In this document: piece after piece, positions 33,749-63,508 of the stretch
Layout of the letters: each line of letters begins with the position of its first letter
Numbering within the stretch: position 1 is the first letter of the stretch
From: Escherichia phage PNJ-9
Sequence record: PQ100635.1
DNA length: 64,000 nt
Reading direction: 5' to 3' (one strand)
Notes under the pieces: generated by a model
What the model was told of the DNA's origin: nothing
Seen by the model: only the letters and a program-made list of their open reading frames with translations
Databases searched by the model: none
Position numbers and translations under genes: made by a program

Positions 33749-34384
33749 ATGAAAACTACTCCTATTACTATCGCTATTGACGCAATCATAAAACAATCTT
33801 CTTCTTTGGCCGCTATGGCCAAAGTAATTAGTCAAAACCCTGCTCGTTATAATGCTATTCTAGAAACTCTTCGACGCCCGGGACTTAGTAATTATGAAAG
33901 CCGAGTAATTATTACAGGTGTTGGTAAGAATGCTAATATTGCAACTAAAGCTTCTGAGACATTTGCTTCACTCGGTATCCCGAGTATGTACTTGAACACT
34001 GGGCATTATTCTCACGGTGATGCAGGATTCATTGCGCCTAATGATGTGTTGATTCATATTAGTCGTTCTGGTAAAACTGAAGAAATGATAGGCGTGGCTA
34101 AGCATCTTAAAATGATTCGTCCGAACGTCAAACAGATTCTGTTGCATTGTAACCCAGACATTCCACAAGAATACGAAGCTCTTTTTGATTATACGTTCTG
34201 TACAGGCATCGCAGTAGAGGTTGATGAGAATTCTCTGGCTCCGACCATGTCCACTACATTGTTGTTAGCGCTTATCGATACGTTTGCTATCAACCTTTCG
34301 TCTGAACGTGGATTTACCTCTAATGACTTCCTTAAGTTCCACCCTGGCGGTGCACTAGGTGCCATGTTACGAGGCGAACAATGA
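33749..34384 (+). CDS. SIS-domain sugar-phosphate isomerase (arabinose-5-P isomerase / phosphoheptose isomerase-like)
   Basis: 211 aa; RVIITGVGKNANIATK...HISRSGKTEE typical SIS motifs; GAGAGAAAT RBS. Confidence 0.7.
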   Translation: MKTTPITIAIDAIIKQSSSLAAMAKVISQNPARYNAILETLRRPGLSNYESRVIITGVGKNANIATKASETFASLGIPSMYLNTGHYSHGDAGFIAPNDVLIHISRSGKTEEMIGVAKHLKMIRPNVKQILLHCNPDIPQEYEALFDYTFCTGIAVEVDENSLAPTMSTTLLLALIDTFAINLSSERGFTSNDFLKFHPGGALGAMLRGEQ

Positions 34385-34565: not shown

Positions 34566-36254
34566 ATGAAAAAAGCTGTTATTCTTGGTGCTGGACTGGC
34601 AACTCGTTTGTATCCAATAACGCATCATATTCCTAAGGTGCTTGTTAACTATAAACAAGACACTATTCTGAGCAATTTGTATACAATTTATTCTGACCTT
34701 GGCGCAGATGAAATTATTGTAGTAGTTCATTCAAAATTTGCTGAAACTGTTCGAGCTTATTGTGAGCAAGAAGGGTTCAATGTGACTATTCGTACAGTTG
34801 ATGAAGCGTATGGTTCTGCTTATGCTCTTGCTAAATTGCACAAAGATTTAGACGGCCATAATGTAATTGTTAACTGGTGTGATATTATTCCTGATTTTGG
34901 TTCGTGGTCTTGGAATGTTAACGCAATCTATGTTAAGGGTGACGAATGTCGATATAATTTCGACGGTGAAAATATCACTAATGTAGGTTCAACAGGTGGT
35001 AATGTTGTAGGAATTTATCAGTTCAAAGACTGGGAATTCTATATGGGTTCTACTGATGAGGAAATTCATGAATACTGCAAAGGACGTGATTTCGTAGAAT
35101 TCCTTTACGGCAGCGCATTCAATAAATCAGAGCTTATGAATATCATCGACCTTGGTGATATGCCTAAACTTGAAAAAGCTCATGAAGTTCGTGAACTTAA
35201 TCGTAGTTTTAATGCAGTTGAAATTGGCGAAGAAACGGTAACAAAGATTGCTTTAACAGAACAGGGCGTTGCACTTCAAAAAGATGAAGTCAATTGGTAT
35301 AAGAAAGTTAAATCAGATTCAGTTCCACGGATTGTAAGTTATCATCCTGGCGGCCACTTTATTATGGAACGTATTAAAGGTAAGCCAGCATTTGAATATA
35401 TTAAATCCAAATCAAGTCTTGCTCGTCCACAAATTGTTGATGCAATTTTAGATGCACTGAAATTCAGCACAGACACTTATTTTGTAAGTCCTGAAACTGT
35501 TCGTCGTGATTTCACTAAAGAATTCTATACTAAAGTTATTGATCGTTGTGAAAGTATTCAACCATTGATTGATTCATTTGGTAAAATCACACATGTGAAC
35601 TACACTAAGATTGGGCGTCTGAAGCCAATGTTGAAACAAGCTTTAGAACACCTTATTCGTTATCATAACCGTTCTCAGGGACAGTACTCTGTTATTCATG
35701 GTGACCCGAACTTCAGTAATACTATGATTACTGATAATGGTGAAGTCAAGTTTATCGACCCTCGTGGATATTTTGGTGAAACCAAGATTTATGGGCCAAA
35801 ATTGTATGATGAAGCTAAAGTGCTTTACGCTGTTTCAGGTTATGATGAATTCAACGCTAATCCGACTTGGGGACAGTTTACTATTGATGAAACAACTTGT
35901 AATGTGACTATTAACATCAATCCGTTAGTTTACAAATATGGAAAGATGAGTTCGTTTAATGAGTATCATCATTTGGCTGTAGCAATTATCTGGATTGCAT
36001 TAGGTGGTTATTTCAAGAATAATCCACTTAAAGCGGTAGCCGCATATTATAAAGGTATGGAACTTCTGACTAAGCAATTACGTAATATGGGCCGTGTACT
36101 TCAAGACGGCTCTATTAGTTATGATGTAGCAGAACCTGTAACGGCTACTCTGATTACAAAAAATCCTGGTAAATGGGTACTAACTGATAAAGAAACTGGT
36201 GTTTCTTATCGTCCAATCGGTGGCGATATCACTCATCAATGGGAACGAATCTAA
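34566..36254 (+). CDS. bifunctional sugar-1-phosphate nucleotidyltransferase / kinase-fold protein
   Basis: 562 aa; N-terminal ILGAGLATRLYPIT..PK motif; C-terminal HGDPNFSN...IDPRG aminoglycoside-phosphotransferase-like kinase motif. Confidence 0.7.
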   Translation: MKKAVILGAGLATRLYPITHHIPKVLVNYKQDTILSNLYTIYSDLGADEIIVVVHSKFAETVRAYCEQEGFNVTIRTVDEAYGSAYALAKLHKDLDGHNVIVNWCDIIPDFGSWSWNVNAIYVKGDECRYNFDGENITNVGSTGGNVVGIYQFKDWEFYMGSTDEEIHEYCKGRDFVEFLYGSAFNKSELMNIIDLGDMPKLEKAHEVRELNRSFNAVEIGEETVTKIALTEQGVALQKDEVNWYKKVKSDSVPRIVSYHPGGHFIMERIKGKPAFEYIKSKSSLARPQIVDAILDALKFSTDTYFVSPETVRRDFTKEFYTKVIDRCESIQPLIDSFGKITHVNYTKIGRLKPMLKQALEHLIRYHNRSQGQYSVIHGDPNFSNTMITDNGEVKFIDPRGYFGETKIYGPKLYDEAKVLYAVSGYDEFNANPTWGQFTIDETTCNVTININPLVYKYGKMSSFNEYHHLAVAIIWIALGGYFKNNPLKAVAAYYKGMELLTKQLRNMGRVLQDGSISYDVAEPVTATLITKNPGKWVLTDKETGVSYRPIGGDITHQWERI

Positions 36255-36640
36255 TGCACCGTGTAAAAAACATGCTTAATCTTTGTTTTGATGTCGATGA
36301 TTGCATCACGGAATGGAATAACAATCGTGATTACGTGAACTTCAAACCAGACGTCGAAATGGTGTCTGCCATTAATGCCCTATATGATGCAGGGCATACA
36401 ATAACGCTTTACACTGCTCGCGGTATGAAGTCAGTCGGTCCTGGTCGTATAGCAATTGACATTCTCCCAAGTCTGATTCAGAACTTGGCAAACATTGGAT
36501 TGAAGTACCATAATTTGCTAACACATAAACCAGTATATGATTGGATTATCGACGACAAAGCTATGCGTCCTGACGAATTCAAAGCTCTTATGAATAAAGG
36601 CGAATTCGAAACATTTAAATCATATAAACCGAATCTATAA
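36254..36640 (+). CDS. HAD-superfamily phosphatase-like protein
   Basis: 128 aa from ATG in TAATG overlap; FDVDDCIT motif I-like; track ORF begins 36239. Confidence 0.6.
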   Translation: MHRVKNMLNLCFDVDDCITEWNNNRDYVNFKPDVEMVSAINALYDAGHTITLYTARGMKSVGPGRIAIDILPSLIQNLANIGLKYHNLLTHKPVYDWIIDDKAMRPDEFKALMNKGEFETFKSYKPNL

Positions 36641-36694: not shown

Positions 36695-37855
36695 ATGAAT
36701 ACCTTTAAAATCGGAACGAATTTTGATTTAGCTCTTCTTGATAAAATCGTAGAGCTCAATAAAACTTATCCTAATAGCTTGATAAACGAAGTATACGGCT
36801 CTACCAGAGAAATGGCTTTTGTAGCAGCCAGACCTGATTTTAGGCTTCCTGACGTTGACAAAAAGATGTTAGAAGATTACGTTAAACGTTGTAACGAATT
36901 AGGTATTTGCTTTAACTATACACTCAACACGATAAATCCTGGTTCAAAAAGAGAACTAGTTGAGTGGAAGAAGAAAGCTATTCAGGATTATGTTCAGTAT
37001 CTTTGGTCAATAGGCGTATGGCGTATTACTATCGCTAACCCTGTTGTTATGGAAATTGTTCGTGAAGTCAATAAAGACATTGAGATTGAAGTTTCAACAA
37101 TTCTACATGTCGATGCTGTAACTCAAATCAAATACTTGCATGACCAATATAATATCAAAAAGGTCTGCTGTGGAATTCATAAGAACCGTTCAGTTTCTTT
37201 CCTGAAGCGTGCAGCAGAGTTTTGTAATAAGAACAATATAATATTTGAAGTTCTTGTAAATGAGTTCTGTTCTAATGCTGGTAAAGGGTATACAACACAT
37301 TGTAGCTATCGTGACTCTTGCTATATTTTCCATAGCACCGATGTTACAGTAGATGATGCTAAATCCTTAAACGGATATCCAATGCAGCACTGTATTAAAG
37401 CTCGTGATACAGACCCATTTAACTGGTTGAGAACTCGTTTTGTTCGTCCTCAAGATTTGAAACTTTATAATGATATTGGTATCACTCAATTCAAAGTTTC
37501 AGGACGTACAGGTAGCACAGACTACATTTTGAAAGTTCTTGAAGCTTATGCTTCCGAAAAATTTGAAGGTAATTTGTTGGAATTGTGGAAGCCTTTAGAG
37601 ACCATTTTCACTCTTGAAAATGAGACCGAGTTTTCACATACGGTAAATATTGAAACCTCTTTGTTAGATGGCTTTTTAGAAAAAAGGTGGTTCAGACATC
37701 CAGATTTCGATTGTGCTAATGAAATCTGCGGGACGACGTGTACATATTGTGAAAGATATTATAAACGTCAATTATCTAAAAACGGGTTAGCAGAAAACTC
37801 TATATCTATTATTGATATAACTAACTCTGATGACGCTTTGAGGTACCCGGAATGA
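36695..37855 (+). CDS. TIM-barrel-like protein with C-terminal Cys cluster (possible peptidase-U32-family Fe-S enzyme)
   Basis: 386 aa; CANEICGTTCTYC (C-x4-C-x3-C-x2-C); loose resemblance to U32 family; function unassigned. Confidence 0.55.
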   Translation: MNTFKIGTNFDLALLDKIVELNKTYPNSLINEVYGSTREMAFVAARPDFRLPDVDKKMLEDYVKRCNELGICFNYTLNTINPGSKRELVEWKKKAIQDYVQYLWSIGVWRITIANPVVMEIVREVNKDIEIEVSTILHVDAVTQIKYLHDQYNIKKVCCGIHKNRSVSFLKRAAEFCNKNNIIFEVLVNEFCSNAGKGYTTHCSYRDSCYIFHSTDVTVDDAKSLNGYPMQHCIKARDTDPFNWLRTRFVRPQDLKLYNDIGITQFKVSGRTGSTDYILKVLEAYASEKFEGNLLELWKPLETIFTLENETEFSHTVNIETSLLDGFLEKRWFRHPDFDCANEICGTTCTYCERYYKRQLSKNGLAENSISIIDITNSDDALRYPE

Positions 37856-38133: not shown

Positions 38134-38850
38134 ATGGGAAAACATAACACAATGAAATATATCAAAGCCGCAGATTTTCAAACCGCATTTAAAGCAGTCA
38201 ATCGTGAAATTTTAGAAAACCCGGAATTCGTAACTGATTCTCGTATTGGACGTTGTAATGAAATTGGGTCTATGACAGTAGTTGTTGATACCCCTTCATC
38301 ATTCAAAATGACCGACCCACGTATTAACCGCATCTCTTATGAATATGCCGAAGACTTCTGGAAATTTATGATTTCTGGTGGTACTGATGCAGAAGAAGCA
38401 TTTAAGGCATATCCTAATGTCGCTAAATTTATTTCTAAACCAAAATCAGATGCTTTGCCTGCGAACTTCAACACTTTCTATGGTCCTCGCATTGCGGCCC
38501 AATTACCAACTCTTCTAAAAGAACTTAAAGAGAAACCTAACTCTCGAAGAGTTGTGTTCCAAATTCTAGAAAGTTCTGATCAGGCTTTGCTTGATTCGGA
38601 TGAAACGCTTGAATATCCATGTACTGACTCAGTGACTTATTATATTCGTGATGGTAAGCTTTATACCCACTGTCATATGCGTTCTCAGAACTGTGCTGTT
38701 GTTATGCAGTTGGATTTTTATCTCCAAGGAAAATTACTTCATTATATCGCTAACGAATGTGGTGTAGAAGTTGGTGATTATACTCATACCATGGTAAGTG
38801 CCCATGTGTTTGAACGTGATTTTGATTATGTTAAAGGATTCCTTGACTAA
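38134..38850 (+). CDS. 42: dCMP hydroxymethylase gp42 (thymidylate-synthase fold)
   Basis: 238 aa; CTDSVTYYIRDGKLYTHCHMRSQNCAVVMQLDF aligns with T4 gp42 active-site region from memory. Confidence 0.8.
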   Translation: MGKHNTMKYIKAADFQTAFKAVNREILENPEFVTDSRIGRCNEIGSMTVVVDTPSSFKMTDPRINRISYEYAEDFWKFMISGGTDAEEAFKAYPNVAKFISKPKSDALPANFNTFYGPRIAAQLPTLLKELKEKPNSRRVVFQILESSDQALLDSDETLEYPCTDSVTYYIRDGKLYTHCHMRSQNCAVVMQLDFYLQGKLLHYIANECGVEVGDYTHTMVSAHVFERDFDYVKGFLD

Positions 38851-39749
38851 TGGCTATTTTCCGCGTACCTATCTTGAGTATGCGGTCTTATGAAACTGGT
38901 CAGTATGCTATCCTTAAGGATGGCAACTTCCAACTTCATTTGCACCGTGCTAATCCAGGTGATGTAATTACATATCCACGTAATGCATCTGATATTAAAG
39001 AATGTGAACGTCTTTTCCCAGAATTTAAGTTTGTTCCATTATGGTATAAAGATAACGCATATAACACTCGTAAATATTTCTGGTCTGAAAATGAATTTGT
39101 GGTTGATTCATTAATTGCTTATTATGATTGTGATTTTCTAATCACAGATATCACTGGATATGACGGCGCTTTTGATGTGGAATTCAATTTCAATATCACT
39201 GCAGACCCTAATAAACCACGTTTTTATATTGACGAATTCTTAAAAACCGATATGTTGTCGGTTAATCGTTCACTTCAAACTACTGTGTTGAATAAACGTC
39301 AAAAGGAAGTGCTGGTTAACGCTGGTGCCGATGGTAATAAGATTATCGTAACCCAGAAAGTTATACGTCCTTCCATCATGCAGCGTCTTGTAGGTGATTT
39401 GGCTCCTATTCATCTAGATGGTATTTTTCATCCATTTCGAATTAGTGACCCGTGCTATCGTTTTGAACAAGTGGTTGAATGTGCAATTCAATTAGGTCAA
39501 CCGCTTTATATAACCGATCCAAATAATAGCTTCGACAGAAATAAGTATCCTGAAGAAGCGCTGATTCGAATTTTTAAACCAACTAAAACTGAGTACTATC
39601 AAATTCTTAAAGGACGTCCGAAGATTCAATATTTCGAAAATCCTGAAGAAGTATTTCATCCAGGTCTTGGCGAGTTCATCTACTTTAACGCTTTAATTTC
39701 TTCGCCGTATAATATACCTAAATATGAAGATGTTGTAATCGAGGAATAA
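38850..39749 (+). CDS. hypothetical protein (299 aa) in the position occupied by beta-glucosyltransferase in T4; candidate DNA sugar-transferase
   Basis: TAATG-coupled to gene 42; no recognisable motif; functional call by synteny only. Confidence 0.55.
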   Translation: MAIFRVPILSMRSYETGQYAILKDGNFQLHLHRANPGDVITYPRNASDIKECERLFPEFKFVPLWYKDNAYNTRKYFWSENEFVVDSLIAYYDCDFLITDITGYDGAFDVEFNFNITADPNKPRFYIDEFLKTDMLSVNRSLQTTVLNKRQKEVLVNAGADGNKIIVTQKVIRPSIMQRLVGDLAPIHLDGIFHPFRISDPCYRFEQVVECAIQLGQPLYITDPNNSFDRNKYPEEALIRIFKPTKTEYYQILKGRPKIQYFENPEEVFHPGLGEFIYFNALISSPYNIPKYEDVVIEE

Positions 39750-54712: not shown

Positions 54713-54742
54713 GTTTACAACCAAGGATGGTTGGAGTATAAT
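54713..54742 (+). promoter_or_regulatory. early promoter (GTTTAC, 17 bp, TATAAT)
   Basis: Third copy of the CAACCAAGGATGGTTGGAGTATAAT module. Confidence 0.55.
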
Positions 54743-54772
54743 GAATTCAACTTAAACAAAGAGAGAAAAAAT

Positions 54773-55270
54773 ATGATTACTATTGGTGAAATCCTTCGTG
54801 TATCTCCTGCTTCTCGTTCTAAAGCTGCAGGTCGTCTGGTTGAAGTCGCAGGGCTTCGTACTAACGGCATGGGACGTGTTAAAGAAGTTAAAGTTCGAAT
54901 CATGCCCAGTTTTGGCGGACAAGAGGCCCAGTATGCTTACGTAAGTCCTAAATTCCTGGAAAAACATATACGAGTCCAATTTGCTTCAAGCGAAGAAGTT
55001 GCACCTGCACACTTTGCTTCAAGCGATATCGTTGAGCCTAATGTACAGTTCAAATGGGCCTTGTGTAAAGGCGTTGAATTTGTAACCGATAAAGAATTTG
55101 ATTACATCGACGAATACGGTTATCCAAGCAAAACTGATACTATGTGTGGCTTCATTAGTGACCAATGGGTTGAAGATGGTGAAAAGTTATACAATATCGT
55201 ATTCTTAGGTGACTTCCGAGTTGTTAAAGAATCTGAAATCACTCGCTATGTGTCTCCTCGTAAAGCTTAA
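54773..55270 (+). CDS. hypothetical protein (165 aa), tandem paralog A
   Basis: ATG after GAGAGAAAAAAT; ASRSKAAGRLVEV and GFISDQWVEDGEKLYNIVF shared with 55280 ORF. Confidence 0.5.
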   Translation: MITIGEILRVSPASRSKAAGRLVEVAGLRTNGMGRVKEVKVRIMPSFGGQEAQYAYVSPKFLEKHIRVQFASSEEVAPAHFASSDIVEPNVQFKWALCKGVEFVTDKEFDYIDEYGYPSKTDTMCGFISDQWVEDGEKLYNIVFLGDFRVVKESEITRYVSPRKA

Positions 55271-55279
55271 GGAATTATT

Positions 55280-55699
55280 ATGAATATTGTAAATCTCTCT
55301 ACAGGTGATTACGTATATGTATCTGTTGCTTCTCGCTCTAAAGTTGCAGGAAAGCTGGTTGAAGTTCTTTCTGTGAGTGATCCGGTTTTTGGACGTAACG
55401 AAGTTAAAGTTCGTGATGCTGATGGTAACATTGGTTATGTTAAAAGCCAATTCATTGAGCCAGAAGAACGTGTGTTCAAATGGAAACTGTGCAGGTCTGT
55501 TTTAGTTGTAAAAGACCGTGAATTCACTATTGCTGCGGCAACCGATGGAACGCCGTGGAAAACTAAGCAAATCGCCGGATTTATTAGCGACCGTTGGGTA
55601 GAAGATGGTGTTAAGCTTTATAACATCGTTTTCGCCGGACAGTTCATGGTAGTTCCTGAGTTCCAAATCAAAAAATATTGTCCAGCATCTTTTGCATAA
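55280..55699 (+). CDS. hypothetical protein (139 aa), tandem paralog B
   Basis: ASRSKVAGKLVEV and GFISDRWVEDGVKLYNIVF shared with 54773 ORF. Confidence 0.5.
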   Translation: MNIVNLSTGDYVYVSVASRSKVAGKLVEVLSVSDPVFGRNEVKVRDADGNIGYVKSQFIEPEERVFKWKLCRSVLVVKDREFTIAAATDGTPWKTKQIAGFISDRWVEDGVKLYNIVFAGQFMVVPEFQIKKYCPASFA

Positions 55700-57071: not shown

Positions 57072-58889
57072 ATGATTAAAAATGAAATTAAGGTATTGTC
57101 AGATGTAGAACATATTAAGAAACGAAGTGGCATGTATATTGGTTCTTCGGCCAAAGAAGCCCACGAGCGTTTTTTGTTTGGTAAATATCAACAAGTTGAA
57201 TATGTTCCTGGTCTGGTTAAATTAATCGATGAGATTATTGACAACTCGGTTGATGAAGCTATTCGTACATCATTTAAGTTTGCAAATAAAATTGATGTGC
57301 AAATTAAAAATAATCAAGTTTCGGTGGAAGATAACGGACGTGGTATTCCTCAAGGTTTAGTTACCGACCAAACAGGTGAACAAATTCCTGGGCCTGTAGC
57401 AGCCTGGACTATTCCAAAGGCTGGTGGTAACTTTGGTGATGACTCTGAACGCAAGACTGGTGGTATGAACGGCGTCGGGAGTAGTTTAACTAATATCTTC
57501 TCTACGTTGTTTACAGGCATCACGTCAGATGGCGAAAATGAAATCACTGTTAACTGTTCAAACGGAATGGAAAACAAATCATGGTCTTCTAAGAAATCTA
57601 AAGGTAAAGGCACTAAAGTAATCTTCACTCCCGATTTCTCTTCATTTGAAGAGCATAATTTATCTCAAATTTATTTAGATATTACTTTAGACCGACTTCA
57701 AACATTGGCAGTCGTTTATCCTGATATCAAGTTCACATTTAATGGTAAAAAGGTTGATGGTAATTTTAAACGATTTGCTAAACAATTTGGTGAAGATAAC
57801 ATCATTCAAGAAAATGATAAAGTCTCTATAGCATTCACAACATCACCAGACGGCTTCCGTCATTTAACTTATGTGAATAACATTCATACTAAAAATGGTG
57901 GTCATCATGTTGAATGTGTAATGGATGATATCTGCGAACATCTTTTGCCCGGCATTAAAAAGAAATATAAGGGTATTGAAGTCACTAAAGCTCGTGTTAA
58001 AGAATGTCTCACAATGTTGATGTTTATTAGAGACATGAGCAACATGCGTTTTGATTCTCAGACTAAAGAACGTTTAACGTCAACGTATGGTGATATTCGT
58101 AATCATATCCAATTAGATGCTAAGAAAATTGCTCAGGCACTTCTTAAAAATGAAGCTTTGATTATGCCTATTGTTGAAGCAGCATTAGCTCGTAAATTGG
58201 CAGCAGAAAAGGCTGCAGAAACTAAAGCAGCTAAAAAGGCAACTAAAGCTAAGGTTCATAAGCATATTAAAGCTAACCAATGTGGTAAAGATGCGGATAC
58301 GACATTGTTTTTAACAGAAGGTGATTCGGCAATTGGTTATCTCATTGATGTTCGTGACCGTGAACTACACGGCGGATTCCCATTACGTGGTAAGGTGATG
58401 AATAGCTGGGGTATGTCATATGCTGATATGATGAAGAACAAAGAGCTCTTTGATATCTGTGCTATCACAGGTCTTATTCTTGGTGAAAAGGCAGAGAACA
58501 CGAACTATCGTAATATTGCGATTATGACCGATGCCGATCATGACGGTCTTGGAAGTATTTATCCGGCTTTGCTTGCTTTCTTTAGTAATTGGCCTGAATT
58601 GTTTGAACAAGGACGTATTCGCTTTGTTAAAACGCCTGTAATTATTGCACAAATTGGCAAAACTCAAAAATGGTTTTATACTGTAGCTGAGTACGAAGAA
58701 GCTAAAGATACACTGCCTAAGCATAGTATTCGATACATCAAAGGATTGGGCTCCCTTGAAAAGTCAGAATATCGTGAAATGATTCAGAACCCTGTGTACG
58801 ACGTAGTTAAACTTCCTGAAAATTGGAAAGAACTCTTTGAAATGTTGTTGGGTGATGATTCAGAACTTCGTAAAGAATGGATGTCCTAA
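57072..58889 (+). CDS. 39: DNA topoisomerase II large subunit gp39 (GyrB-like ATPase)
   Basis: 605 aa; GHKL ATPase motifs (EDNGRGIP) and TOPRIM; unsplit form (no separate gene 60). Confidence 0.9.
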   Translation: MIKNEIKVLSDVEHIKKRSGMYIGSSAKEAHERFLFGKYQQVEYVPGLVKLIDEIIDNSVDEAIRTSFKFANKIDVQIKNNQVSVEDNGRGIPQGLVTDQTGEQIPGPVAAWTIPKAGGNFGDDSERKTGGMNGVGSSLTNIFSTLFTGITSDGENEITVNCSNGMENKSWSSKKSKGKGTKVIFTPDFSSFEEHNLSQIYLDITLDRLQTLAVVYPDIKFTFNGKKVDGNFKRFAKQFGEDNIIQENDKVSIAFTTSPDGFRHLTYVNNIHTKNGGHHVECVMDDICEHLLPGIKKKYKGIEVTKARVKECLTMLMFIRDMSNMRFDSQTKERLTSTYGDIRNHIQLDAKKIAQALLKNEALIMPIVEAALARKLAAEKAAETKAAKKATKAKVHKHIKANQCGKDADTTLFLTEGDSAIGYLIDVRDRELHGGFPLRGKVMNSWGMSYADMMKNKELFDICAITGLILGEKAENTNYRNIAIMTDADHDGLGSIYPALLAFFSNWPELFEQGRIRFVKTPVIIAQIGKTQKWFYTVAEYEEAKDTLPKHSIRYIKGLGSLEKSEYREMIQNPVYDVVKLPENWKELFEMLLGDDSELRKEWMS

Positions 58890-58912
58890 GCTCCTTAGGG
58901 AGCTTCATTTTA
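58888..58912 (+). terminator. hairpin terminator candidate
   Basis: AAGCTCC-TTAG-GGAGCTT then T-rich tail; overlaps gene 39 stop. Confidence 0.4.
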
Positions 58913-58931
58913 ATTTTAATAAGGCTTAATT

Positions 58932-60032
58932 ATGAAAGTTATGTTTATCCCATCTCGTGCAGTCCCATTTAATCCTGACCGTGTACAAGGTGGTCTTGAA
59001 GCAGTACATTTAAATGTGTTGAAATATCTTGTGTCCATCGGCGCTGATATTGATTATATCGGCTTTGATAATGACACGTTTGGTGATTGGAAAGTTACAC
59101 ACCATCCTGTTGGTCATCTGACTAAATTCAGTCTAGGTATGAGTTATACTATGGCTCGTAAGATTGTTGAACTAGCCGGCATCCATGAATACGATTTTGT
59201 TGTTACTATGGAACCGACTAAACTAACCGTTCAGGCAATTAAAGACGCAGGTCTCTCTAAAGTTCATAAGAATTTTATGGCAACACCATTTGAACCGGTA
59301 TCTCGTGGCATTGTTCAAATTTGGGACCAGACTATTCAAATTCATAAGAATGGTGGTAAGAGTTATGCTCCTACTAAAGCCTTCCGTGAATTTGAACGCA
59401 AATATTGTTATATGACTTCAGGTCTGACTGACAAAATTGATTATGATTATTGGCGAGCAAATCCGTTGTTTGAAGCCGAAGATTATCCGGTTATTTGTTT
59501 GAATGAGAAACCTGAAGTTCTTCCGGCGACTGATCTGATTATTAGTGCACAACGTTATGACACTAAAATGCGTCGCACTGATGTTGCTCTTGAAGCAATT
59601 AAAGCACTAGGCGAAAATGGTGTAGGATACTGTCCAAGCAAATGGGCACCACCAGCTAAATATCCTGTTATTATTGATGCTCCACACAGTGAAATCATGG
59701 AACGTCTTAAAACAGCTAAAGCACTTATTAATACTTGTCCTGACACAGGTACAGTAGAGAATAGTTCTATTGAAGCCATCTCTAAAGGTGTCCCTGTAAT
59801 CCAGTTAGTTTTTAAGGATTATCCTCATGCGACATTTGAATACGACCCAGATACTGTGCGTGTAGAAATTGATTCCTCTACTCCTAAGAAAGAAGTAGTT
59901 GCGCTTTACACAAAAGCTGTATTAGAATTCACTGACACATACGAAGCTCGAGTTAAACGTGCTGAAGCAGTATGGAAGAAGTATAATCGAGATGCAGTTG
60001 TTGCGATGTGGGATAAAATCTTCACAGCGTAA
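58932..60032 (+). CDS. GT-B-fold glycosyltransferase-like protein (366 aa)
   Basis: N-terminal MKVMFIPSRA...GGLE and C-terminal ENSSIEAISKGVPVI resemble GT1/GT4-type motifs; sits between 39 and rIIA. Confidence 0.6.
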   Translation: MKVMFIPSRAVPFNPDRVQGGLEAVHLNVLKYLVSIGADIDYIGFDNDTFGDWKVTHHPVGHLTKFSLGMSYTMARKIVELAGIHEYDFVVTMEPTKLTVQAIKDAGLSKVHKNFMATPFEPVSRGIVQIWDQTIQIHKNGGKSYAPTKAFREFERKYCYMTSGLTDKIDYDYWRANPLFEAEDYPVICLNEKPEVLPATDLIISAQRYDTKMRRTDVALEAIKALGENGVGYCPSKWAPPAKYPVIIDAPHSEIMERLKTAKALINTCPDTGTVENSSIEAISKGVPVIQLVFKDYPHATFEYDPDTVRVEIDSSTPKKEVVALYTKAVLEFTDTYEARVKRAEAVWKKYNRDAVVAMWDKIFTA

Positions 60033-60124
60033 ATCCTGAATAGCCTGAGGCACTATTACACATAAGATGATAGATTATACGGTCTTTAGTAATAGTGCCC
60101 TAGGAATCTACTGAAGAGAATATT

Positions 60125-60325
60125 ATGAGAACATATAACGTGGACTTGGAACTTTTTGATAAAGCTGTGCTCCGGGAATTCCGGCTTATCCAAAGATTTT
60201 TTGATATCGAGTCAGCAGAGTCCTTTAAAGAACGCTTTAAAGAAATTCGATATAAAATACAAACCGATACAGCTACTAAAGAAGAACTTCTTGAAGTAGC
60301 AGAAATTTTTAAACGTAACTTGTGA
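60125..60325 (+). CDS. hypothetical protein (66 aa; rIIA.1 position)
   Basis: GAAGAGAAT RBS. Confidence 0.5.
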   Translation: MRTYNVDLELFDKAVLREFRLIQRFFDIESAESFKERFKEIRYKIQTDTATKEELLEVAEIFKRNL

Positions 60326-60337
60326 TGAGAGAAAAAT

Positions 60338-62551
60338 ATGATTATTGAAACGGCTAAAGAAACGATTATTGGTTCAGGCGGTAAGAGCACAGCATTTACT
60401 ATTCAAGGCAATAGCAAAGTTTATAAGATTTTGTCTAATGACCTTTATACAAACAAAGAATTGGCTTGTGTACGTGAATTAATCACAAACTGTATCGATG
60501 GACAAATTCTTAATGGTTGCACTGATAAGTTTATTGTTCAGGCTCCAGGTCGTTTAGACCCACGTTTTGTAGTTCGAGACTTTGGTCCTGGTATGAGTGA
60601 TTTCACCATTCGAGGTAATGACGAAGAGCCAGGAATCTATAACTCATATTTTGCTTCAACTAAAACATCGAGTAACGATTTCATCGGTGGATTCGGACTC
60701 GGCTCTAAAGCTCCACTAGCATATACCGATACGTTTAACCTTACGTCTTATCACAACGGTGAAGTTCGTGGTTATGTAATTTATCAAGATGACACAGGCC
60801 CACAGATTAAGCCGACCTTCGTAGATAAGATGGGTCCTGATGACCGTACGGGTGTAGAAGTAGTTGTGCCTGTTAACCCAGAAGATTTTGAAAAGTTCGC
60901 ATCTGAAATTGCATATGTTATGCGTCCTCTAGGTGATATTGCAGAAGTTCGTGGTGTTAAAGATATCAAATACTTCCCGGAATTCGATGATGTTTATTTA
61001 GCCAAGGAAGCTCCATGGGGTGAACGTGGTAATATCATGGCTGTTTATGGCGGTATTGTATATCCAATCGGAAGTGTTATTAAAGAACAAACATGGATGA
61101 TGACGCGATGCACTACAGCTTATATTAAATTCCCTATGGGTGAACTAGATGTCGCCCCGTCTCGTGAAGCATTGTCATTTGATAAACGTACCGTAGCAAA
61201 TATCCATAAACGCGTTGCAGAAATCGATGCTAAACTGTTCGCTGAAGATTCTAAGAAATGGATTGATTGTAAATACCCACGTCATGTGTTCCGTGAAATT
61301 GATTCTCTTGGCTATACCGCTCGTAAATACATGGAAAAGGCTGGGTCTAATATTGAATCACTAAAATACTCTAAAGAACAACTAACTTATTCCGAGTTGT
61401 ACAAACGTTTTAAAATGGGACCTGAATGGTGCAACCTTGGCGTTGTATATGATATAGTTTCAGACCCACGACTTCGTCGTATTCGTGAAAGCGGAAGCTC
61501 GTCTGCAACTATTTCAATTAATAGCCTGCTAGGTATTAGTCGTAAGCATATTGATATTGTTATTGACGATGTGAAAGGCCGCGTACCAATGATGCGTGCT
61601 CTGAACGATGCTTTGACTTCCACCGATGCATCAACACTCGTTGATAAGGTTCCTTCCGGATGGGGTAGTAGCGTATTATTCGTTAATCCGGAAGATGAAG
61701 TTGCAATGAAACTTCTAGAACGATTAAAGGTTATTTTCGCTGGTGATAGCCTTAAATTTTATAAGACCTCTGAAATTCTTGCATTAGTTAAACCGTGGAT
61801 TGAAGTTAAAGAACGTTCATCGCAGCCTCGTCCTAAATCCCCAAGTGCTCATCGGTTCTTTAAGAATGAAAACGATGTTTGGGTATCAGAAGATCTCTTT
61901 ATTCCGGCCGGTAAAGCCGATGAGATTCAAGGTTATGTTGTAATTCGTAATCGTTCTAACGCCGAATGTCTTGACGCAGATAAAGGTTGGTTGAACTATG
62001 ATTCTAGTTTCTTGACTCGTATTGCTGATTTGTCAGGTATTAAAGAGTTCACTGTAGTCCGTCCACAGATTGCTAAGAAAGTTCGTAAACTTGGTGAAGT
62101 AGAATGCTTGTTCGAAAAATCAATTAATGACTATATTACGCTAATTGACAAAGTGGATTATGATGAGTATGTATCACCAAGTCGTAGAGCACAGCCTTAT
62201 TTGAATCATATTACTCGTAATGAAGAGCTTAACTTCCTTAGTAAGTATTTTAGCTCTAAGAACAAAGAAATCAGTAAAGATTTTGCAAAACTTTCAACAG
62301 TAAATAATCGTTGGGGATGGAATCGATTCGCAGGTGCTGATAACAGAGACCTGAACAGGAAGTTAGAATTGTGTGCTAAAATTTTCGATAAGCTTAAAGA
62401 TAATGCTTACGATAATGATGATAAAATGGTTATTGAATTTGAAACCAATTATCATATTGTGTCAGAATACATGGGACGACGTGGTACTCTTTCTAAAGAA
62501 CAGGTCGCTCAAATCGTTAAATTCATGAAGGCCGTGGAAGCGGCCAAATAA
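60338..62551 (+). CDS. rIIA: rIIA membrane-associated protein (GHKL ATPase-like)
   Basis: 737 aa; ELITNCIDG ATPase motif; followed by rIIB. Confidence 0.85.
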   Translation: MIIETAKETIIGSGGKSTAFTIQGNSKVYKILSNDLYTNKELACVRELITNCIDGQILNGCTDKFIVQAPGRLDPRFVVRDFGPGMSDFTIRGNDEEPGIYNSYFASTKTSSNDFIGGFGLGSKAPLAYTDTFNLTSYHNGEVRGYVIYQDDTGPQIKPTFVDKMGPDDRTGVEVVVPVNPEDFEKFASEIAYVMRPLGDIAEVRGVKDIKYFPEFDDVYLAKEAPWGERGNIMAVYGGIVYPIGSVIKEQTWMMTRCTTAYIKFPMGELDVAPSREALSFDKRTVANIHKRVAEIDAKLFAEDSKKWIDCKYPRHVFREIDSLGYTARKYMEKAGSNIESLKYSKEQLTYSELYKRFKMGPEWCNLGVVYDIVSDPRLRRIRESGSSSATISINSLLGISRKHIDIVIDDVKGRVPMMRALNDALTSTDASTLVDKVPSGWGSSVLFVNPEDEVAMKLLERLKVIFAGDSLKFYKTSEILALVKPWIEVKERSSQPRPKSPSAHRFFKNENDVWVSEDLFIPAGKADEIQGYVVIRNRSNAECLDADKGWLNYDSSFLTRIADLSGIKEFTVVRPQIAKKVRKLGEVECLFEKSINDYITLIDKVDYDEYVSPSRRAQPYLNHITRNEELNFLSKYFSSKNKEISKDFAKLSTVNNRWGWNRFAGADNRDLNRKLELCAKIFDKLKDNAYDNDDKMVIEFETNYHIVSEYMGRRGTLSKEQVAQIVKFMKAVEAAK

Positions 62552-62560
62552 GGAAACATT

Positions 62561-63508
62561 ATGTACAATATCAAATGCTTGTCCCAAGAAGAACAGTTAG
62601 AAGCTTACGGCCTGGTTGAATCAGGCAAATGGACTCGTAAAGAAATTGCCGATTACTTCGACATTTCAACAGATACTCTTCGTAAGATTGTTAAGAATTT
62701 TAAAGCAGAAGGCGTTGTCCCTGAAGCAAACGATGCCTCTTATGTAATCGAAGAAGTTCCAGAAAATGATGAACCTATTATCGGCGGACATCGTCCTGAA
62801 ATCGTATGGAACGCGTCATCTAAATTTATTTCAATTATTGAAGGACGCGTAGCATACAATGCGACTCCATCAAGTCATGCAAATTTTGAAGAAATTAAAG
62901 CTAATCTGGTCGCAGGAAACCTTAGTAAAGCTGTCGAACTTATTAACATCAAGAAAGCTATTAGTAAGTTTGTTGACGGTAATGTTGTTATTGAAGGTGG
63001 TAGTTTATTTTATCAAGGTATAGAGATTCGTTCAGGGCTGGTTAACCGTATTATTGATTCCATGGAAAAAGGCGAAGACTTTAAATTCTATCTACCGTTC
63101 CTTGAAAACCTGTTAGAAAACCCAAGCGAAAAAGCTGTACAACGTTTATTCGACTTCTTGGTTGCAAATGATATTGAAATCACTGAAGATGGGCATTTCT
63201 ACGCGTGGAAAGTAGTTCGTAAAGATTATTTAGATTGCTATAGCGGTACATTTGATAACTCACCAGGTAAAGTTGTTTCAATGCCTCGTACTCGTGTTAA
63301 CGATGATGATACTCAAACCTGTTCTCGCGGTCTCCACGTTTGTGCTAAATCTTATATTCGCCACTTTGGTTCAAGCTCAGATAAAGTTGTTAAGGTTAAA
63401 GTTCATCCACGTGATGTTGTATCCATCCCGGTTGACTATGGTGATGCTAAGATGCGTACTTGTCGTTATGAAGTAATTTCAGACGTTACTGAATTATTTG
63501 CAGAATAA
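62561..63508 (+). CDS. rIIB: rIIB protein
   Basis: 315 aa; directly downstream of rIIA; T4 rIIB is 312 aa. Confidence 0.8.
   Translation: MYNIKCLSQEEQLEAYGLVESGKWTRKEIADYFDISTDTLRKIVKNFKAEGVVPEANDASYVIEEVPENDEPIIGGHRPEIVWNASSKFISIIEGRVAYNATPSSHANFEEIKANLVAGNLSKAVELINIKKAISKFVDGNVVIEGGSLFYQGIEIRSGLVNRIIDSMEKGEDFKFYLPFLENLLENPSEKAVQRLFDFLVANDIEITEDGHFYAWKVVRKDYLDCYSGTFDNSPGKVVSMPRTRVNDDDTQTCSRGLHVCAKSYIRHFGSSSDKVVKVKVHPRDVVSIPVDYGDAKMRTCRYEVISDVTELFAE

Follow-up and report, generated by a model that had tools for sequence, protein, structure and literature searches.

The DNA analyzed here, a single window of 64 kb, is that of a Mosigvirus (an RB69-like phage). Between the topoisomerase gene 39 and rIIA it carries a 366-codon reading frame, which lies exactly where the initial annotation had placed it and is flanked by the genes named there. 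We refer to this gene and its product as the target. Its coordinates are collected in Table 1 with those of the neighboring features and of the arabinose cassette further upstream.

Table 1. Features at the target locus and in the arabinose cassette of the 64-kb window
Feature	Position	Strand	Remarks
SIS-domain arabinose-5-phosphate isomerase	33749..34384	+	= RB69p055, 98.6%
Bifunctional NTP-transferase/kinase, AfhE-like, makes UDP-arabinofuranose	34566..36254	+	= RB69 gp52:53, intact here
HAD-like phosphatase, 133 aa, AfhF-like	36239..36640	+	= RB69p051
Peptidase_U32-family protein	36695..37855	+	= RB69p050
ThyA-family protein	38134..38850	+	99.6% identical to RB69 gp48, 5-hydroxy-dCMP synthase
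Cassette glycosyltransferase (GT), 299 aa, GT-B, proposed first (alpha) arabinosyltransferase on 5-hydroxycytosine	38850..39749	+	= RB69 gp46:47, intact here
Nucleotide (thymidylate-type) kinase, 182 aa	39751..40299	+	= RB69p045
Gene 39, topoisomerase II large subunit, unsplit, 605 aa	57072..58889	+	Upstream flank; Pfam DNA_gyraseB/HATPase_c/Toprim, PHROG 543
Terminator-like hairpin AAGCTCC-TTAG-GGAGCTT with T-rich tail	58888..58905	+	Right after the gene 39 stop, 27 nt before the target ATG
Shine-Dalgarno AAGG	58921..58924	+	7 nt before the target ATG; read from the sequence
Target, GT-B glycosyltransferase gene	58932..60032	+	ATG start, TAA stop, 366 aa
rIIA.1	60125..60325	+	Downstream flank; PF24210
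rIIA	60338..62551		Downstream of rIIA.1
rIIB	62561..63508		Downstream of rIIA

The target is a real gene and not a chance open reading frame. PHROG 8302, a family annotated as "unknown function", matches it from end to end (residues 1-366 of 366, E 1e-222), and about 155 phage records (Mosigvirus) contain it at an amino acid identity of at least 95%. It is under strong purifying selection, with a dN/dS of 0.046 against RB69 and of 0.113 against AV109 (Nei-Gojobori). The GC content of the region is flat at 0.37-0.40 and thus gives no compositional sign of a recent import. A search of the interval between the hairpin that follows gene 39 and the target ATG revealed no sigma-70-like promoter, the site counts being no higher than in shuffled sequence, so that the target would be expressed either by read-through or from a phage promoter of an unrecognized type.

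The 92-nt spacer between the target stop codon and rIIA.1 is occupied by a perfect 11-bp inverted repeat, GGCACTATTAC / GTAATAGTGCC (60044-60104, core arms at 60049-60059 and 60089-60099). As RNA, the spacer folds with -25.6 kcal/mol (z = -3.5), and none of 200 shuffled sequences folds as well. It is nearly identical in RB69, where a single substitution changes a T in the 3' arm to C, and it has no T-tail. This repeat may be an element of mRNA stability or processing. Upstream of gene 39, two adjacent reading frames of 179 and 139 aa (54731-55270 and 55280-55699) are clearly similar to one another, as in the segments 'ASRSKAAGRLVEV' and 'ASRSKVAGKLVEV' or 'GFISDQWVEDGEKLYNIVFLGDFRVV' and 'GFISDRWVEDGVKLYNIVFAGQFMVV', and look like tandem paralogs.

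The closest relatives of the target are found at the same place in other members of the genus. At the DNA level it is 99.6% identical to the gene of phage F2, and its protein sequence is shared without change by phages F2, HX01 and pEK20. In RB69, the gene RB69p003 (RB69ORF003c, encoding gp3, NP_861693.1) also lies between gene 39 and rIIA.1 in the same orientation, and its 366-aa product differs from the target at 3 residues. Sequence comparison thus shows the target to be orthologous to RB69 ORF003c/gp3 and to the phage HY126 glycosyltransferase, from neither of which it differs in substance; the window represents another Mosigvirus isolate.

The initial annotation had stated that in T4 this region holds gene 60 and mobile elements, and the T4 order is indeed rIIA.1-60-60.1-mobA-39. 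In the Dhakavirus JS98 the junction consists of a 588-bp gap only, and in the Mosigvirus AV109 a homing endonuclease gene (661-1458 of the extracted locus) has been inserted between gene 39 and the target (1501-2601). The different contents of T4, JS98 and AV109 indicate that the junction is a plastic site. The AV109 allele of the target is itself a mosaic: codons 91-210 account for 61 of the 76 nucleotides at which it differs from the window, and residues 101-191 for 15 of the 17 amino acid changes. This pattern suggests a patch of intragenic recombination, possibly linked to the endonuclease. In Shigella phage JK45, a full-length target (401-1501 of the extracted locus) is followed by a 411-nt reading frame (1594-2004) that repeats part of it, owing either to a partial tandem duplication or to an error of assembly. 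JK45 is classified as a Tequatrovirus despite its Mosigvirus-type gene arrangement at the target.

Structures of a nearly identical protein confirm that the target has a GT-B fold. In a profile search of PDB sequences, the entries 9iqz and 9ir0 are matched at E 9e-197, with 3 differences in 366 aligned residues. Both are crystal structures released on 2025-07-16, 9IQZ of the apo form of the "phage HY126 glycosyltransferase" and 9IR0 of the same protein "with UDP", and both are 99% identical to the target. The AlphaFold2 model of the target itself, calculated from the 6 available sequences, is of low confidence (pLDDT 58.7) because the family is so small, and was used for Foldseek only. After 9IQZ, the Foldseek matches are GT-B enzymes, mostly of GT4 (PimA, BshA, MshA, tll1591 and LmbT, probability 1.00), and these matches, together with the crystal structures, bear out the glycosyltransferase fold that had been proposed. 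Judging only by the 9IR0 title, the target is also predicted to bind a nucleotide-sugar donor.

The sequence motifs agree with this fold only in part. The initial annotation had described GT1/GT4-like motifs and had suggested a search for Pfam Glycos_transf_1 as a check; the search is negative even though the fold is GT-B. The target matches no Pfam or NCBIfam family at E<=1, and the gathering score that would make it a member of CAZy GT4/Pfam Glycos_transf_1 (PF00534) is not reached. Among 11 members of the target family, the best Pfam hits are all sub-threshold (GT4-conflict 0.0028, Glyco_trans_1_4 0.013, Glycos_transf_1 0.048). A published HHpred comparison of RB69 ORF003c with GT4 structures gave E values of 1e-24 to 1e-27 (Thomas et al. 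2018, PMC6024577). The residues that are invariant in the family are G20, R208 and R214 (an R-x5-R pair), E281 and the segment G286-x-P288-V289, with G21 nearly so; they are spaced like the Gly-rich loop, the basic pair and the second Glu of the E-x7-E motif in GT4 enzymes. The best-conserved segment comprises residues 271-300 and reads, in part, T-G273-T-V-E276-N-S-S-I-E281-A-I-S-K-G-V-P-V, where E281 corresponds to the second Glu, the first Glu is replaced by Gly273, and E276 stands at an x4 spacing. The canonical E-x7-E of GT4 is therefore not present in the C-terminal domain. In the N-terminal domain, D88 and E94, which the family alignments show to be conserved, are candidates for the catalytic base. 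The bacterial GT4 enzymes PimA, BshA and MshA, which rank directly behind 9IQZ among the solved folds (Foldseek E about 1e-8), share with the target the Gly-rich loop, the basic pair and an 'E-A-x-x-x-G-x-P-V' segment. The target differs from them in that the identity is only 12-14%, there is no Glycos_transf_1 match, the E-x7-E is incomplete and the proposed acceptor is a sugar on duplex DNA.

The genes that could supply such an enzyme with its donor and acceptor are present in the same window. Its cassette genes are 95.6-100% identical to RB69p055 through p045. Two of them, 46/47 and 52/53, are interrupted in the RB69 reference but form one continuous reading frame each in the window, which lends support to the published opinion that sequencing errors account for the RB69 splits. 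RB69 gp48 has been confirmed experimentally as a 5-hydroxy-dCMP (5hodCMP) synthase (Lee et al., PMC13326640, Table 1 of that paper). The initial annotation was correct in recognizing a sugar-nucleotide cassette and in placing the target far from it, the end of the cassette being 18.6 kb upstream. The range it gave (33.7-37.9 kb) was too short: the cassette ends only at about 40.3 kb, and the ThyA-family 5hodCMP synthase, a first GT and a kinase also belong to it. The target thus co-occurs in the window with a 5hodCMP synthase, a UDP-arabinofuranose (UDP-Araf) cassette and the cassette GT. The U32-family gene (36695-37855) is missing from the otherwise collinear cassette of the Acinetobacter phages; for the RB69p050-type protein, Lee et al. 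(PMC13326640) have guessed a role as 'sugar or heterocycle reductase'.

The cassette GT has no Pfam match, and its model, built from 44 homologs, has a pLDDT of 94.8. The model resembles MshA, UDP-GlcNAc 2-epimerases, tll1591 and 9ir0, and by this prediction the cassette GT is a GT-B protein. No sequence relationship between the cassette GT and the target could be detected by BLASTP (E 2.9) or hhalign (probability 0.4%). The two proteins are also distributed quite differently. The cassette GT occurs in 348 records, from phages of Escherichia, Klebsiella, Serratia, Enterobacter, Proteus, Yersinia, Edwardsiella, Shewanella and Acinetobacter, and is common to the arabinosylating T4-like phages, including the mono-arabinosylated Thanatos. 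The target family, in a tblastn search of 50,697 phage records, is confined to 211, which are Mosigvirus-type coliphages with one copy and Acinetobacter phages with matches in two places per record; a scan of viral contigs yielded these two lineages again. No target homolog at E<=1e-5 is present in Thanatos, in the arabinosylated Serratia phage LC53 or in the Dhakavirus JS98. According to the organism counts, all lineages that carry the target family also carry the cassette GT, the one exception to this association with the cassette being the remote relative P0015 described below.

The chemistry of the phage DNAs follows the same division. According to the literature, RB69 DNA contains both alpha-D-Araf-O5-dC and beta-D-Araf-(1->3)-alpha-D-Araf-O5-dC, the disaccharide having been established by NMR, and arabinose is the only sugar that MS and NMR have found on its cytidines. 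The modified base is 5-hydroxycytosine (5hoC), that is, the Mosigvirus nucleotide is arabinosyl-5-hydroxycytosine and not a derivative of hydroxymethylcytosine (hmC) (PMC13326640, PMC13390438). DNA of Thanatos, which has a single GT of the cassette type, is mono-arabinosylated (PMC13326640), that of RB69, NP and Bas46/47 carries mono- and di-arabinose (literature), and that of DLP3 carries tri-arabinose (PMC13326640). In these few chemically characterized phages, the length of the sugar chain thus parallels the number of target-family copies: none for mono-arabinose (Thanatos), one for di-arabinose (RB69, NP, Bas46/47) and two for tri-arabinose (DLP3). Since the cassette GT is widespread and occurs even in Thanatos, while only phages with di- or tri-arabinose have members of the target family, we infer that the target adds the second sugar.

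We therefore consider it likely that the target is the second DNA arabinofuranosyltransferase of Mosigvirus, a UDP-Araf-dependent enzyme that extends alpha-Araf-O5-dC in DNA to beta-Araf-(1->3)-alpha-Araf-O5-dC. By analogy with the near-identical RB69 proteins described in the literature, the ThyA homolog would make 5-hydroxy-dCMP for incorporation into DNA, and the other cassette enzymes would make UDP-D-arabinofuranose. The cassette GT would then attach the first, alpha-linked arabinose to 5-hydroxycytosine, and the target would transfer a second Araf from UDP-Araf onto O3 of the DNA-bound arabinose. If, as is presumed, a single donor supplies both the alpha- and the beta-linked sugar, one GT-B enzyme should retain and the other invert the anomeric configuration, as do the alpha- and beta-GT of T4. 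With a longer sugar chain, the phage DNA would be protected more broadly against nucleases and defence systems. For the target itself we infer the acceptor, the linkage and its acting alone, and the single-enzyme mechanism is an assumption. Of the two alternatives in the initial annotation, the addition of a second sugar agrees with the presence of a separate GT-B enzyme in the cassette and with the restriction of the target family to di- and tri-arabinose phages. The hmC-DNA that it named as substrate for a transfer assay is to be replaced by DNA with arabinosyl-5-hydroxycytosine.

Biochemical data for the family come from the Acinetobacter phages. In Konradin, two tandem homologs of the target lie inside the cassette, directly after the genes for the isomerase, the pyrophosphorylase/kinase, the phosphatase, the ThyA homolog, the GT and the kinase. 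They are 43% and 41% identical to the target over its full length. Their position ties the family to the arabinosylation pathway independently of Mosigvirus. The corresponding proteins of Acinetobacter phage DLP3, gp77 and gp76 (Konradin gp072 and gp071), jointly attach one more Araf, taken from UDP-Araf, to RB69 DNA in vitro, so that UDP-Araf-dependent elongation of DNA arabinose is established for the pair; the individual DLP3 GTs are inactive on 5hoC-DNA, and the third-sugar step needs both paralogs (PMC13326640). The target belongs to the family of RB69 gp3 and DLP3 gp76-gp77 (PHROG 8302), to whose members it is homologous over its full length (40-43% identity for the Acinetobacter proteins). 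Mosigvirus differs from DLP3 in having a single copy, relocated 18.6 kb away from a cassette that in DLP3 and Konradin contains both paralogs, and in making the disaccharide only. The two Acinetobacter paralogs are 56% identical to each other and are grouped apart from the target in a neighbor-joining tree, from which it follows that the target is co-orthologous to both and that functions cannot be transferred one-to-one from the DLP3 proteins. Judging from their sequences, the tandem duplication is apparently confined to the Acinetobacter lineage.

The requirement for both DLP3 proteins, neither of which is active alone, raises the question of whether the target elongates the arabinan only as the subunit of a complex that might include the cassette GT, or takes part as a partner that is non-catalytic or confers processivity. 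We regard this as unlikely, given that Mosigvirus has one copy, that the donor-binding motifs are invariant and that the HY126 ortholog was crystallized with UDP, which argues for a catalytically competent enzyme.

Still less probable is that the target is the first, base-proximal enzyme, which would place arabinose directly on the modified cytosine. It was in this role that ORF003c came to attention, as the sole GT candidate that HMM and HHpred searches found in RB69 (Thomas et al. 2018, PMC6024577); at that time, however, gp46/47 was split by the sequencing error and was not recognized as a GT. The window has this second GT-B protein next to the 5hodCMP synthase, and it is the cassette GT, not the target, that all arabinosylating lineages have in common, Thanatos, LC53 and JS98 being without a target homolog. 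That the target glycosylates something other than DNA (the host envelope, a protein or a small molecule) or uses a different sugar is scarcely credible: its fold neighbors PimA, BshA and MshA do act on lipids and small molecules and the Mosigvirus gene does lie apart from the cassette, but the Acinetobacter homologs are embedded in a DNA-arabinosylation operon, family members act on DNA in vitro, every target-bearing lineage also has the cassette GT, and RB69 cytidines carry arabinose alone.

The reading of the target as a second DNA arabinosyltransferase is supported but not new, since the protein is already known as the glycosyltransferase of RB69-type phages. RB69 ORF003c was predicted to be an arabinosyltransferase in 2018 (Thomas et al., PMC6024577), and RB69 gp3 was listed as "beta-arabinosyltransferase 2" in 2026 (PMC13326640), with the same assignment in PMC13390438. 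RB69 gp3 is not among the proteins that Lee et al. (PMC13326640) mark as experimentally confirmed, and we found no report of a direct assay of gp3 or its orthologs in the accessible literature. According to a paper that cites the work, phage Bas46 became sensitive to a plasmid-encoded defence system when "the arabinosyltransferase Aat" was deleted; the citing papers do not specify which Aat is meant. DNA arabinosylation protects the genomes of T4-like phages from restriction enzymes, some types of CRISPR-Cas and DNA glycosylases; which defences see the phage DNA changes with chain length. Knowing the gene that sets chain length would help in predicting the outcome of phage-host encounters and in engineering phages or enzymes for DNA glyco-labelling. 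The target in this window adds nothing to what has been published in this respect.

Among the T-even phages, the nearest functional analog of the target is the beta-alpha-glucosyltransferase of T2 and T6, likewise a second DNA GT that adds a sugar onto the sugar placed by a first enzyme, in that case to give gentiobiosyl-hmC. The T2/T6 enzyme differs in that it transfers a hexose from UDP-glucose on hmC and not arabinofuranose on 5hoC. The alpha- and beta-GT of T4 (a-gt and b-gt) are also GT-B DNA glycosyltransferases that use a UDP-sugar, one forming an alpha and the other a beta linkage, and b-gt adjoins the ThyA-family gene 42, just as the cassette GT of the window adjoins the ThyA homolog. 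Unlike the target, they act on the hydroxymethyl group of the base and not on a sugar. By sequence, the target falls outside the a-gt and b-gt families. In the tblastn search of 50,697 phage records, the target did not match Tequatrovirus proteins, the sole record so labelled being JK45 with its Mosigvirus arrangement, and hhalign gave the target family probabilities of 0.25% against a-gt and 0.38% against b-gt, in a comparison whose sensitivity is limited by the single sequence on one side.

The target family is small. It consists of 5 clusters at 90% identity and has 11 representatives at 50% identity among 1.84 billion proteins, and a word-indexed profile search intended to deepen the alignment of the target recovered 6 proteins only. 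For four divergent members (P0007-P0010), a scan of metagenomes found nothing and tblastn against deposited phages gave no close cultured representative. The most remote member, P0015, is 20% identical to the target and is encoded on a Logan contig (SRR24908209_33372; 10001-11110 of locus L010). Its gene lies directly upstream of genes for an ADDT (amino-acid:DNA transferase, PF18724) and an inositol-1-P-synthase-like protein, and the contig also carries a 5-hmdU DNA kinase (HMUDK_hel) and two AdoMet_dc reading frames. This neighborhood looks like a thymidine-hypermodification cluster, and relatives of the target may thus serve other DNA-modification chemistries. A broader view, which we put forward tentatively and consider rather doubtful, is that the target and its relatives form a distinct GT family in which the GT4-like scaffold, normally that of a retaining enzyme, has lost the first Glu of E-x7-E. 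Such an enzyme would then be an inverting beta-(1->3)-arabinofuranosyltransferase that takes a sugar exposed on duplex DNA as its acceptor, and distant members like P0015 may have been recruited to other DNA-hypermodification pathways (thymidine/hmU clusters).
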